The notes under the pieces were generated by a model that saw nothing but the letters and a program-made list of their open reading frames with translations, had not been told where the DNA came from and ran no database searches. Positions 3,508 to 25,385 of a stretch of DNA of 64,000 bases are shown here, piece after piece (the first letter of the stretch is position 1; each line of letters opens with the position of its first letter). Origin of the DNA: Escherichia coli (lineage in GTDB: Bacteria; Pseudomonadota; Gammaproteobacteria; Enterobacterales; Enterobacteriaceae); NCBI RefSeq assembly GCF_003334765.1, contig NZ_QOWT01000001.1; one strand, 5' to 3'. A program made the position numbers and the translations under genes.

Positions 3508-4117
3508 TTTTACCTCTTTTTTTACATCCCATATTAACGGGGGTGCTTTCTCGCGTTATGTATAAAAAACATACGCGCAATTGTTATAGTGGGAGGGGAA
3601 ACGGCAGGTAATGTTCACTATCTTGCACTTTCAGACAAGTCCTTTGTAATAATCTGTTACATATAACTGAGGCGGGGAATTCAACCATTCCGGGAAATGT
3701 TATCCAGCGTTAAATTTTTCAAAAAACGTAACGGCAGATTTTTTCACTGCACTGAGAGGGGGGTGATGGCTTAACGGCGATATGTTCTGCTATTTAGCGT
3801 TTTTACTAGTGAGATAGTCCAGTTTCTGAAAAATAGCCAGTGTAATGTTTTGTAGGTCAATATTTGTTGCGTGTGTAAATTTAAATGATTTTAACCTGAT
3901 TCTTGCAATGTTTTTACATTGCGACAGCATCGTGATCTTGATCACGAATGAATAGAAAATTTCGCTATTAAAAAAACAATTAACCTGCATTTTTGGTTAT
4001 CCGCAAACGGATTACCTGATGATAACGCTAAGCAATGGCATCATTGACGTTAAAAAGATGTTTTAAAAGAGGATAAAGAAAGGTTATCAATGGGGTAATC
4101 GGTGTTACCCCTTTTCT

Positions 4118-22385: not shown

Positions 22386-23651
22386 ATGAGAAAAATAGTG
22401 GCCATGGCCGTTATTTGCCTGACGGCTGCCTCTGGCCTTACCTCTGCTTATGCGGCGCAACTGGCTGACGATGAAGCGGGACTACGCATCAGACTGAAAA
22501 ACGAATTGCGCAGGGCGGATAAGCCCAGTGCTGGCGCGGGAAGAGATATTTACGCATGGGTACAGGGAGGATTGCTCGATTTCAATAGTGGTTATTATTC
22601 CAATATTATTGGCGTTGAAGGCGGGGCGTATTATGTTTATAAATTAGGTGCTCGTGCTGATATGAGTACCCGGTGGTATCTTGATGGTGATAAAAGTTTT
22701 GGCTTTGCCCTGGGGGCAGTAAAAATAAAACCCAGTGAAAATAGCCTGCTTAAATTAGGTCGCTTCGGGACGGATTATAGTTATGGTAGCTTACCTTATC
22801 GTATTCCGTTAATGGCTGGCAGTTCGCAACGTACATTACCGACAGTTTCTGAAGGAGCATTAGGTTATTGGGCTTTAACACCAAATATTGATCTGTGGGG
22901 AATGTGGCGTTCACGAGTATTTTTATGGACTGATTCAACAACCGGTATTCGTGATGAAGGGGTGTATAACAGCCAGACGGGAAAATACGATAAACATCGC
23001 GCACGTTCTTTTTTAGCCGCCAGTTGGCATGATGATACCAGTCGCTATTCTCTGGGGGCATCGGTACAGAAAGATGTTTCCAATCAGATACAAAGTATTC
23101 TCGAGAAAAGCATACCGCTCGACCCGAATTATACGTTGAAAGGGGAGTTGCTCGGCTTTTACGCGCAGCTCGAAGGTTTAAGTCGTAATACCAGCCAGCC
23201 CAATGAAACGGCGTTGGTTAGTGGACAATTGACCTGGAATGCGCCGTGGGGAAGTGTATTTGGCAGTGGTGGTTATTTGCGCCATGCAATGAATGGTGCC
23301 GTGGTGGATACCGACATTGGCTATCCCTTTTCATTAAGTCTTGATCGTAACCGTGAAGGAATGCAGTCCTGGCAATTGGGCGTCAACTATCGTTTAACGC
23401 CGCAATTTACGCTGACATTTGCACCGATTGTGACTCGCGGCTATGAATCCAGTAAACGAGATGTGCGGATTGAAGGCACGGGTATCTTAGGTGGTATGAA
23501 CTATCGGGTCAGCGAAGGGCCGTTACAAGGGATGAATTTCTTTCTTGCTGCCGATAAAGGGCGGGAAAAGCGCGATGGCAGTACGCTGGGCGATCGCCTG
23601 AATTACTGGGATGTGAAAATGAGTATTCAGTATGACTTTATGCTGAAGTAA
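22386..23651 (+). CDS. uidC: outer-membrane glucuronide porin-like protein UidC
   Basis: 421 aa, signal peptide MRKIVAMAVICLTAASGLTSAYAAQ, beta-barrel-like composition, C-terminal ...QYDFMLK. Confidence 0.9.
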   Translation: MRKIVAMAVICLTAASGLTSAYAAQLADDEAGLRIRLKNELRRADKPSAGAGRDIYAWVQGGLLDFNSGYYSNIIGVEGGAYYVYKLGARADMSTRWYLDGDKSFGFALGAVKIKPSENSLLKLGRFGTDYSYGSLPYRIPLMAGSSQRTLPTVSEGALGYWALTPNIDLWGMWRSRVFLWTDSTTGIRDEGVYNSQTGKYDKHRARSFLAASWHDDTSRYSLGASVQKDVSNQIQSILEKSIPLDPNYTLKGELLGFYAQLEGLSRNTSQPNETALVSGQLTWNAPWGSVFGSGGYLRHAMNGAVVDTDIGYPFSLSLDRNREGMQSWQLGVNYRLTPQFTLTFAPIVTRGYESSKRDVRIEGTGILGGMNYRVSEGPLQGMNFFLAADKGREKRDGSTLGDRLNYWDVKMSIQYDFMLK

Positions 23652-23658
23652 AAAATAA

Positions 23659-23686
23659 CGCCGGAGAGAAAAATCTCCGGCGTTTC
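23659..23686 (+). terminator. intrinsic terminator downstream of uidC
   Basis: Hairpin cgccggagag-aaaaa-tctccggcg followed by ttt, 8 bp after the uidC stop. Confidence 0.55.
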
Positions 23687-23715
23687 AGATTGTTGACAAA
23701 GTGCGCGTTTTTTAT

Positions 23716-23812
23716 GCCGGATGCGGCGTAAACGCCTTATCCAGCCTACAAAAACTCATAAATTCAAAGTGTTGCAGGAAAAGGTAGGCCTGATAAGCGT
23801 AGCGCATCAGGC
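23716..23812. repeat. REP/BIME element (two inverted REP copies)
   Basis: gccggatgcggcgtaaacgccttatccagcctac and taggcctgataagcgtagcgcatcaggc match the E. coli REP consensus, in opposite orientations. Confidence 0.8.
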
Positions 23813-23832
23813 AATCTCTGGTTTGTTTTCAG

Positions 23833-23862
23833 ATGAAAACGCCGGAGTGAAAATTCTCCGGC
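23833..23862 (-). terminator. intrinsic terminator downstream of ydgA
   Basis: Hairpin cgccggag-tgaaaatt-ctccggcg, flanked by T-runs on both strands. Confidence 0.5.
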
Positions 23863-23876
23863 GTTTTGGCCGTGAA

Positions 23877-25385
23877 TTACTGCTGCGGAATTGCCGGTAC
23901 AGCCGGAACGTTAAGAGCTGGCATCGCAAACATGCCAACAAAATCTTCTAACGACATTTTCTGCCCATTTAACGTTATCTGACCGTTAGCATATTGCAGG
24001 CTGGTGGTGATGGTATTGTCCTGCAAGGTGGTCAGACGGAACATCTGCCCCATTGCTGATGCACCTTCAACTTGCTGTTTCGCCAGTTTTTTCGCTTGAT
24101 CTTCCTGATAACCTTCCAGCTTCGCTACCTGAGTCATAAACTCAGTTGCCATATCCACCGGAATGGTCAGTTTCGCATCCAGAGATTTAACCGAACGATC
24201 TACTTCCTGCGCCAGCGTTTGCGGCGCTTCTTTAGTCGTTGCCGGATCTTTCAGGAACAGCGACAGATTCAGGGCACTTTCACCCTGACTGTTTTTCCAG
24301 CTTAGCGGCGCGATAGTAATCACCGGATCGCCTTTCAGCATCAGCGGCAGGGCGCTAAAGAAGGCTTCCGTCACTTTCTCCTGATAAAGTTCGGGGTTGT
24401 TGGCAATTTCTGGCTGTGCCAGCAGCGCCTGAGTTTGCGCGTTATATTGCTGGCTAAACTGATGCCAGGCTTCACCATCAATCTGGCCGACTTTTAAAGT
24501 CAGCTTGCCGCTGCCCAGATCCTGATTCTGTACCTTCAGGCTGTTTAGCGAGTAATCCAGTTGGCTATTGATCGTTTTACCGTCATTGACCAGATCCGAT
24601 TTACAGCTGATCTCCATGCCTTCCAGCAGTGCCAGTTCTTTGCCTTCCACTGAAATGGTCATTTTTTCCAGTGACAGTTTTTGATTTCCTACACGCTCAC
24701 CAAAACTTGCCAGCGTGCTGGAACCGTCGGTTTTCAGATTATTAAAGGTCAACTGCACTTTCTGGTTGTATTCGTTAACTGCGTCTATCCGACCACTTTG
24801 CGCCTCCCCGGAAAGGGAGATGGCTTTGCCGTCTCTGTCAGCATTTAACTGGAACTCGCCGCCGCTAAAGGCGACTTTTTCATCCTTTTGCTCGTAATTC
24901 AGTGGCTTGAGCGAAATATCGGAACTGGAATCACCGCTGTAACCAATGCGCGAGTTAATCTCAAAAGGCGTTTCACCTTTTGCCATATCAAACAGTGGTT
25001 TGCTTACTTCGTTATTAACCAGCGTGGTTTGAATTGATGCCATCGACGGGATCAGGTTCAGTTTTTTAAGCTGGGCAAGCGGGAAGGGACCATGATCAAC
25101 CGATTCGTTGAAGATGACGCTCTGACCGCTTTTAATCCACGGATTTTCTTTCCCGGCAATGGGTTTCACCAACAGTTGCAACTGGCTGCTGAATACGCCG
25201 CGATGATAGTTTTGATAACTCACTTCCAGGTTGGATTCAGGAGCTGTCAGTTTGAGTTGCGCGTTCGCCTGCGCGACCATGTCTTCGAGATGGGTTTCAA
25301 TCTTCTTGCCTGTATACCATGCGCCGCCTGTCCAGACTACGCCTAGCGCAACAATGACGCCTACCGCTACCAGCGATTTATTCAT
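23877..25385 (-). CDS. ydgA: DUF945-family periplasmic/inner-membrane-anchored protein YdgA
   Basis: 502 aa, N-terminal signal/anchor MNKSLVAVGVIVALGVVWTGGAWYTGKK, no catalytic motifs recognised. Confidence 0.85.
   Translation of the reverse strand: MNKSLVAVGVIVALGVVWTGGAWYTGKKIETHLEDMVAQANAQLKLTAPESNLEVSYQNYHRGVFSSQLQLLVKPIAGKENPWIKSGQSVIFNESVDHGPFPLAQLKKLNLIPSMASIQTTLVNNEVSKPLFDMAKGETPFEINSRIGYSGDSSSDISLKPLNYEQKDEKVAFSGGEFQLNADRDGKAISLSGEAQSGRIDAVNEYNQKVQLTFNNLKTDGSSTLASFGERVGNQKLSLEKMTISVEGKELALLEGMEISCKSDLVNDGKTINSQLDYSLNSLKVQNQDLGSGKLTLKVGQIDGEAWHQFSQQYNAQTQALLAQPEIANNPELYQEKVTEAFFSALPLMLKGDPVITIAPLSWKNSQGESALNLSLFLKDPATTKEAPQTLAQEVDRSVKSLDAKLTIPVDMATEFMTQVAKLEGYQEDQAKKLAKQQVEGASAMGQMFRLTTLQDNTITTSLQYANGQITLNGQKMSLEDFVGMFAMPALNVPAVPAIPQQ

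Follow-up and report, generated by a model that had tools for sequence, protein, structure and literature searches.

Why should one short intergenic spacer carry what look like twin terminators for a single pair of genes? The 225-bp spacer that separates the stop codons of the convergent Escherichia coli genes uidC and ydgA, positions 23652-23876 of the 64,000-nucleotide (nt) stretch of DNA analyzed here (the window; contig NZ_QOWT01000001.1), holds two near-identical hairpins on either side of a pair of repetitive extragenic palindromic (REP) sequences. The mode of movement of REPs and of bacterial interspersed mosaic elements (BIMEs) is a question about forty years old. The answer to which we are led, and to which we assign a probability of about 85%, is that a BIME of type 1 (BIME-1) inserted beside a single bidirectional terminator and duplicated its palindrome, so that the two hairpins are the footprint of an insertion whose target, junction and palindrome-length duplication are directly testable.

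Two copies of a terminator palindrome around a BIME-1

The left hairpin, cgccggagag-aaaaa-tctccggcg (23659-23682), lies inside a 29-nt repeat at 23657-23685, and the right hairpin, cgccggag-tgaaaatt-ctccggcg (23840-23863), inside a second one at 23838-23866. The two 29-mers start 181 nt apart, leave an interval of 152 nt between them, and are identical at 27 of 29 positions in direct orientation; the right copy (AACGCCGGAGTGAAAATTCTCCGGCGTTT) differs by two loop substitutions from the left one (AACGCCGGAGA-GAAAAA-TCTCCGGCGTT, plus a T at 23685 whose assignment is ambiguous). Both copies were delimited by the repeat itself, by folding and by alignment with the short allele described below, and the duplicated segment, which is the left copy without the ambiguous T, is exactly the maximal palindrome. 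A preliminary description of this DNA, made from the sequence alone, had placed near-identical hairpins at these positions around the REPs, as we find, and had called them mirror images, which they are not: they are copies in the same orientation that look inverted because each is itself palindromic. When the 45 nt to the left of the element between the hairpins were compared with the 45 nt to its right, the flank-repeat score was 46, whereas a null distribution of mismatched left and right flanks had a 99th percentile of 19 and a maximum of 41. Chance similarity of the hairpins was rejected.

For both hairpins and both strands, the folding energy is about -20 to -21 kcal/mol (z = -4.6 to -6.1). 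On the plus strand, the right copy is followed by TTTTGG, as in the ancestral spacer, and on the minus strand the left copy keeps the original U-rich tail, UUAUUUUUU; in the ancestral hairpin, the tails formed a strong U-tract in the ydgA direction and a weak one (UUUUGG) in the uidC direction. A terminator scan returned a sole hit, the left hairpin on the minus strand, which is the direction of ydgA. Counted from the sequence, the 8 nt past the CGCCGGAG-type core stem contain seven U's for the left hairpin and five for the right on the minus strand, and four for either hairpin on the plus strand. The preliminary idea that the hairpins serve the uidC and ydgA transcripts is therefore only partly sustained: they are terminator-type stem-loops, but very probably two copies of one bidirectional ancestor rather than separate terminators, and a scheme in which the left one serves uidC and the right one ydgA is too simple, because the scan flags the left hairpin on the minus strand only.

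The DNA between the hairpins was identified as a BIME-1 of 153 nt (23685-23837, plus strand) by a profile match, by identity to a paralog and by a 181-bp presence/absence difference among genomes. The profile, built from other genomes' copies, matches 23685-23832 with E = 3.5e-42 (nhmmer; profile positions 1-149 of 152), and the nearest paralog of the inserted DNA, in genomes without the element at uidC-ydgA, is the fepA-entD BIME-1, with 84.5% identity over element positions 1-147. From left to right, the element comprises a left terminal motif, (T)CAGATTGTTGACAAAGTGCGCG... (23685-23714, plus strand; delimited from the family alignment and consensus); a Y-type REP, or palindromic unit, TGCCGGATGCGGCGTAAACGCCTTATCCAGCCTAC (23715-23749, plus strand; two mismatches to the Y consensus over the unit at 23716-23749); an L linker of 34 nt (23750-23783); a Z1-type REP on the minus strand, reading GTAGGCCTGATAAGCGTAGCGCATCAGGCA on the plus strand (23784-23813; no mismatches to the consensus over the unit at 23784-23812); and a right terminal motif, ATCTCTGGTTTGTTTTCAGATGAA (23814-23837, plus strand), for which the family consensus is aTtTtGCGTTTGTCatCAgtct, then C in most copies. 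Neither the Y nor the Z1 match was seen in 100 shuffles, and the 64 kb contain no other such units, the element being single-copy there. The preliminary description had proposed just such a REP/BIME between the convergent genes, with two inverted REP copies at 23716-23812, and the poor match to the REP consensus that would have refuted it was not found: the match is good and the class is BIME-1. A comparison with the consensus site of integration host factor (IHF), which it had also called for, revealed a matching sequence motif between the REPs, the core ATTCAAAGTGTTG at 23762-23774, which departs from the IHF consensus WATCAANNNNTTR at one position. The family linker consensus, ATTCAATATATTG, has the identical single mismatch, and one mismatch is found in 33 of the 45 copies with a recognizable linker. 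The linker of the window departs from the family consensus at three positions, the differences within the core being confined to positions that the IHF consensus leaves unspecified, and a G-to-A change at 23743 disrupts one stem pair of the Y REP.

The BIME-1 elements of E. coli, also called RIB or RIP, are reportedly treated in work by Gilson, Bachellier and Hofnung, by Boccard and Prentki in 1993 and by Oppenheim in 1993. BIME-1 has been described as a Y and a Z1 unit with a long L linker containing an IHF site, in single copy (Ton-Hoang 2011), and as about 140 bp long and present or absent among isolates (Chiapello 2005). The element at uidC-ydgA is BIME-1 rather than BIME-2 because its Y and Z1 units are inverted around an L linker with an IHF-type site, and its short REP unit is Z1 because Z2 is a longer unit, GTAGGcatGATAAGaCGcgcCAgCGtCGCATCaGGCA, in the paper that also gives the Y sequence (Nunvar 2010); a reading of the short unit as Z2, and hence of the whole as an atypical BIME, was ruled out on the same grounds. 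It shares with the known RIB/RIP elements the inverted units, whose GTAG/CTAC ends face a linker of about 34 nt with an IHF-type core, the conserved outer motifs, a length of about 150 bp, the single copy, the location at the 3' end of convergent genes and the presence/absence among strains. We found no structural difference; it is a slightly diverged member, and a canonical, already known BIME-1 of K-12. BIME-2 and atypical BIMEs also have a Y REP and an extragenic location, but BIME-2 has the longer Z2, short S linkers and tandem arrays and is reported to be bound and cut by gyrase, whereas the element in the window has Z1, an L linker and one copy. Gyrase binding, which had been suggested for this element, does not carry over to it, being attributed to BIME-2 and atypical BIMEs and not to BIME-1 (Ton-Hoang 2011; Nunvar 2010). 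Rfam gave sub-threshold matches only, the best being naRNA4 (RF02564) at 23705-23746 on the minus strand, with 37 bits against a gathering score of 59.5. This match is not evidence for a small RNA gene, since the family was built from REP325 and any Y REP partly matches it.

Empty and filled alleles at uidC-ydgA

The 701-bp stretch around the spacer is 100% identical to K-12-derived strains, and the spacer corresponds to NC_000913.3 1691361-1691585 in reverse orientation. This long allele was found in 1751 of 5426 complete E. coli genomes, and each sampled allele of the other kind spans exactly 181 bp less (19 listed rows). In the short allele there is a single hairpin, which is of the left-copy type and is followed directly by TTTTGGCTGTGAATTA, the sequence (TTTTGG...) that follows the right copy in K-12; in some short alleles this hairpin has exactly the left-copy sequence, and others differ at one loop base. 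Nearly all long alleles match the window at 99% identity or more (1729 records at this level, 1751 long alleles), whereas the short alleles lie on haplotypes that are 95-96% identical to it over 520 bp of flanks, with many of the differences in the last ydgA codons. No BIME is present in three outgroups (E. albertii, E. fergusonii and a third member of the genus, with a YdgA 86% identical), where ydgA is followed by one hairpin. The single-hairpin outgroups, the tight long-allele group and the diverse short haplotypes together argue that the short allele, with a spacer of about 44 bp and one palindromic hairpin, is ancestral. The K-12 state would then have arisen, in all likelihood, by insertion of the 153-bp BIME-1 together with a second copy of the 28-29-nt palindrome.

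The same alleles could be read in the opposite direction, with the long allele ancestral and the short one produced by deletion of the BIME-1 through recombination or slippage between the 29-nt direct repeats. Such repeats, matching at 27 of 29 nt around a 152-nt interval, have a geometry that favors deletion, and the left-copy type of the short-allele hairpin is what a crossover late in the repeat would leave. Bachellier's 1997 study reportedly termed BIME-1 absences 'excisions'. Chiapello 2005, citing Bachellier 1997, states just that BIME-1 is present or absent among isolates. Deletion is hard to square with three outgroup Escherichia that have a single hairpin and no BIME, or with a tight group of long alleles next to short alleles on diverse haplotypes, and it still needs a prior duplication to make the repeats. 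We consider it very unlikely as the origin of the short allele; secondary loss of the element may have occurred in some lineages.

The hairpin sequence was found at uidC-ydgA only, at two places in most sampled long-allele genomes (at one in a few rows) and at one in short-allele genomes. Because it is unique to the locus, the second hairpin arose by duplication on the spot and did not come in with the element. We found no donor locus for either the right hairpin or the 181-bp block, the hairpin being locus-unique and the nearest paralog of the element being 84.5% identical. The allele data also bear on the picture implied by the preliminary description, in which two independent terminators, one per gene, merely have a BIME between them. 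Both hairpins are indeed GC-rich and stable, and each adjoins the stop codon of one gene. The single-hairpin alleles nonetheless refute independent evolution: one hairpin suffices for both genes in about two thirds of E. coli and in the three outgroups. The 27/29 identity in direct orientation extends to the loop, and a flanking duplication recurs, with locus-specific sequences, at 25 of 53 unrelated BIME-1 loci (see below). We regard two independent terminators as having next to no probability.

Two further features of the alleles were noted. The K-12-type haplotype around ~23400-24100 is unusually diverged for E. coli, and by its sequence may be a recombinant import that carried the insertion. 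The loop of the right hairpin copy (GAGAATTTTCACTC, ydgA strand) resembles that of the E. fergusonii hairpin (GAGAATTTCACTC; ~4013-4037 of locus L132), and the left, uidC-proximal copy matches the hairpin type of the short allele and of locus L133 (1841-1868). The likeness of the right loop to E. fergusonii may reflect an old polymorphism, gene conversion or coincidence.

Flanking palindromes at other BIME-1 copies

A Z1-unit scan of species-representative genomes yielded 120 loci, and a profile search of those loci yielded 53 complete, non-orthologous BIME-1 copies, the one in the window included, from E. coli-like strains, E. albertii, another Escherichia, Pseudocitrobacter and other taxa. 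When the flank test was applied to each, 25 of the 53 copies had a flank repeat scoring at or above the null 99th percentile, with scores up to 51. The repeats are locus-specific GC-rich hairpins of 16-29 nt (median 22, with two 38-nt outliers), and the center of the repeat is at most 1 nt from the center of the palindrome in 19 of the 25. In most of these copies, the left repeat ends 0-1 nt before the first base of the element (consensus TCAGATTG), abutting it at this distance in all but three, while the right repeat mostly starts 1-2 nt past the profile end (consensus ...CAGTCT, usually then C) and lies within 1-4 nt of the element in all but one. A perfect hairpin is flush with at least one element end in 37 of the 53 copies, compared with 6 of 53 at a junction shifted by 8 nt. 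A locus-specific duplicated palindrome recurs, then, in about half of the sampled BIME-1 copies of Escherichia and Pseudocitrobacter.

These junctions weigh on a further account of the uidC-ydgA locus, that the hairpin was first duplicated in tandem and a BIME-1 was inserted between the copies later. Taken alone, uidC-ydgA would look the same at the end of that history. Among the sampled rows, neither a BIME-free allele with two hairpins nor a span of intermediate length was seen, and tight junctions on the left (0-1 nt) and right (1-4 nt) recur from locus to locus, which a two-step history would not repeat. Prior duplication is thus highly improbable.

The ymdF-rutG locus provides a second empty site, with one hairpin (CACCGCCGGTTACCCCGGCGG) in strain EC31. 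BIME-1 lies at this one hairpin in a K-12-like strain and, in the opposite orientation, in strain SCPM-O-B-8794; in both, the hairpin is duplicated and flanks the element. The opposite orientations in two lineages make these independent insertions into one target. BIME-1 has been inserted flush with a palindrome and the palindrome duplicated, either orientation being possible, and the length of the repeat tracks that of the palindrome. That this pattern of palindrome duplication is real we hold with high confidence, and the length of the duplication may be set by the hairpin and not by an enzyme.

Tandem copies and other occurrences complete the survey. In E. albertii NBRC 107761 (locus L035, 1220-1945), we found a BIME-1-like tandem array of 4.1 copies with a period of 177, equal to one 24-nt hairpin plus one 153-nt element; because the period is the sum of the two, the sequence suggests amplification by unequal exchange between flanking hairpin repeats. 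Locus L014 (6956-7531) holds another BIME-1-like tandem array, of 3.9 copies, in which the period is 147 and no hairpin separates the units. The gudD-barA BIME-1 (locus L082) did not provide a second polymorphic locus: no empty site was found, the sampled genomes span the full query, and this copy appears to be present in all E. coli. Contigs with E. coli-type BIME-1 also occur in assemblies labelled Oscillospiraceae, Bacteroides/Bacteroidales (metagenome-assembled genomes), Alkalicoccobacillus and Methylobacterium (loci L009, L086, L087, L118 and L119); they are most likely mis-binned or contaminating enterobacterial contigs.

Insertion route, present-day function and neighboring genes

How could an insertion copy a whole palindrome? 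In the sequence of events that we favor, the ancestral single hairpin would have served as a bidirectional intrinsic terminator for convergent uidC and ydgA, and in the lineage that includes K-12 the element would have landed flush against the hairpin foot, doubling the 28-29-nt palindrome so that one copy came to lie on each side. The target would be recognized and cut by its structure, both strands being nicked at the feet of an extruded hairpin or cruciform, with the nicks one palindrome-length apart, and joining of the element followed by gap filling would copy the entire palindrome. Staggered nicks at the feet would make the length of the repeat vary by locus with that of the palindrome, giving repeats of 16-29 nt, and would allow either orientation. 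The REP-associated Y1 transposase of E. coli is the obvious candidate for the responsible enzyme.

A replication-based route leads to a similar product. The nascent strand would fold back after copying the palindrome, the BIME would be joined or copied at its 3' end, and restart at the near foot would copy the palindrome again. Like staggered nicking, this predicts a palindrome-length repeat and flush junctions, and it accords with what has been proposed for REP-associated Y1 transposases, a biology of single strands and replication forks (Ton-Hoang 2011). The junctions, by contrast, show no homology between element ends and targets by which a restart might be guided. That one hairpin has received insertions in both orientations is compatible with staggered-cut and replication models alike, and the present data do not separate them; we consider the replication route possible, though rather unlikely.

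Classical MITEs (miniature transposable elements with inverted repeats), which are moved by DDE transposases, are likewise short and non-coding, with flanking direct repeats, empty and filled alleles and both orientations; their terminal inverted repeats may have a weak counterpart in BIME-1, and BIME-1 has in common with them a flanking target duplication of which empty sites hold one copy (uidC-ydgA, ymdF-rutG and, for the duplication, 25 of 53 copies). The MITE duplication, however, has a length fixed by the transposase, whereas that of BIME-1 is much longer, variable and identical with the local palindrome, and no parent insertion sequence was found for BIME-1 in ~1 Mb of loci. Some mobile elements target hairpins: class C group II introns insert after terminator stems, and IS1397 and ISKpn1 in REP loops. 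BIME-1 resembles them in its stem-loop-defined site and in landing flush with the foot of an intrinsic-terminator hairpin; unlike BIME-1, they are autonomous and encode their own enzyme, and neither class C group II introns nor IS1397/ISKpn1 are known to duplicate the whole hairpin. With the REPIN/RAYT system, that is, REPINs and their REP-associated tyrosine transposases (RAYTs; TnpA-REP, Y1 HUH enzymes related to IS200/IS605), BIME-1 shares the inverted REP doublet, the GTAG/CTAC heads, the non-autonomous nature and the polymorphism among strains. IS200/IS605 transposition is single-stranded and makes no target duplication, whereas BIME-1 has a duplication, of 16-29 nt, and weak terminal inverted repeats. 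Y and Z2 units flank the RAYT gene of E. coli (Nunvar 2010).

Several points weigh against insertion with palindrome duplication as we propose it. How the palindrome comes to be duplicated at the molecular level is purely a matter of inference, and Y1 transposases of the IS200/IS605 type, to which RAYTs are related, are not known to make target duplications (Nunvar 2010). A search for inverted terminal-motif pairs 300-4000 bp apart did not reveal an autonomous partner with matching ends in ~1 Mb of loci, a weak negative from a limited sample. The terminal motifs are imperfect inverted repeats that agree at 12 of 15 positions (AGAyTGmTGACAAA), a weak match counted by eye on the family consensus ends. 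A significant flank repeat is lacking in 28 of the 53 copies, and among all 53 a flush hairpin is found at the left end only in 14, at the right end only in 6 and at neither end in 16; either repeats decay or are lost, or some insertions duplicate no target. Finally, the copy at uidC-ydgA may itself be decaying, to judge from the stem-breaking change in its Y REP (23743) and its three linker differences.

In the accessible literature, whose scope leaves out the older primary papers (Boccard & Prentki 1993; Gilson 1991; Bachellier 1997), we found no mention of duplicated terminators flanking BIME-1. A review describes REPs as devoid of transposon-like (MITE) signatures, and the REPs of other species that are 'inserted within' conserved palindromes (Di Nocera 2013) represent a different situation. 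Priority for the pattern cannot be claimed, and as an element the K-12 copy is a textbook BIME-1. That BIME-1s are structure-targeting mobile elements, which insert flush at the foot of a terminator palindrome in either orientation and duplicate all of it, and that this is both real and unpublished, we put forward tentatively, as a somewhat doubtful proposition. If undescribed, the pattern contradicts the common statement that REPs and BIMEs show no transposon signatures. If true, it gives the spread of BIMEs a concrete, testable target and junction rule; each insertion would turn a terminator into a hairpin-REP-IHF-REP-hairpin module, and the flanking repeats would permit later precise loss or tandem amplification. 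As a repeat in the best-studied of bacterial genomes, the feature in the window is ordinary; its footprint is general and was not to be expected from the accessible literature. For annotation, two terminators that bracket a REP doublet should be taken as a single ancestral terminator.

Insertion also parts a hairpin from its U-tract and may thereby alter the 3' ends and read-through of both neighboring genes. At present, each convergent transcript would first meet a hairpin copy that has lost its tail, then the REPs, and then the copy that retains the U-tract. Read-through RNAs would end in stable REP and hairpin structures that hinder 3' exonucleases, resistance to which has been reported for REPs generally. 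At the DNA level, by analogy with the BIME-1 family, the locus would present an IHF-type site flanked by two REP stem-loops.

The neighboring coding sequences frame the spacer closely. The one for UidC, a glucuronide porin, occupies 22386-23651 on the plus strand (open reading frame (ORF) list; RefSeq annotation of identical or near-identical records), its TAA stop codon ending at 23651 and the left hairpin repeat beginning 5 nt further on; that for YdgA, a DUF945 protein, occupies 23877-25385 on the minus strand, convergent with uidC (ORF list). A 76-amino-acid ORF at 23721-23951 on the plus strand begins within the Y REP and extends into ydgA, to which it is antisense. The start and the 49 leading codons of this ORF (its first 146 nt) lie inside the 181 bp missing from short alleles, so that about two thirds of E. 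coli genomes lack its 5' part, and it was annotated in none of the RefSeq records examined. We rejected it as a real gene, in agreement with the preliminary description; it is spurious, and the locus needs no new gene call. The RefSeq record NC_000913.3 lists no repeat features, even where annotation of REP1 would be expected, which makes their absence at uidC-ydgA uninformative.

Finally, the gene content next to the hairpin varies. In E. coli strain 143, from cattle (locus L002, 1-549), uidC is annotated as a frameshifted pseudogene. E. fergusonii (L132) has aminotransferase and adenosine-deaminase-type genes 3' of ydgA instead of uidC, and in E. albertii (L131) no uidC is called in the 210 bp from the ydgA side to the contig end. 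Because ydgA of these two species has no adjoining uidC, the ydgA hairpin is older than its role as a terminator shared with uidC.

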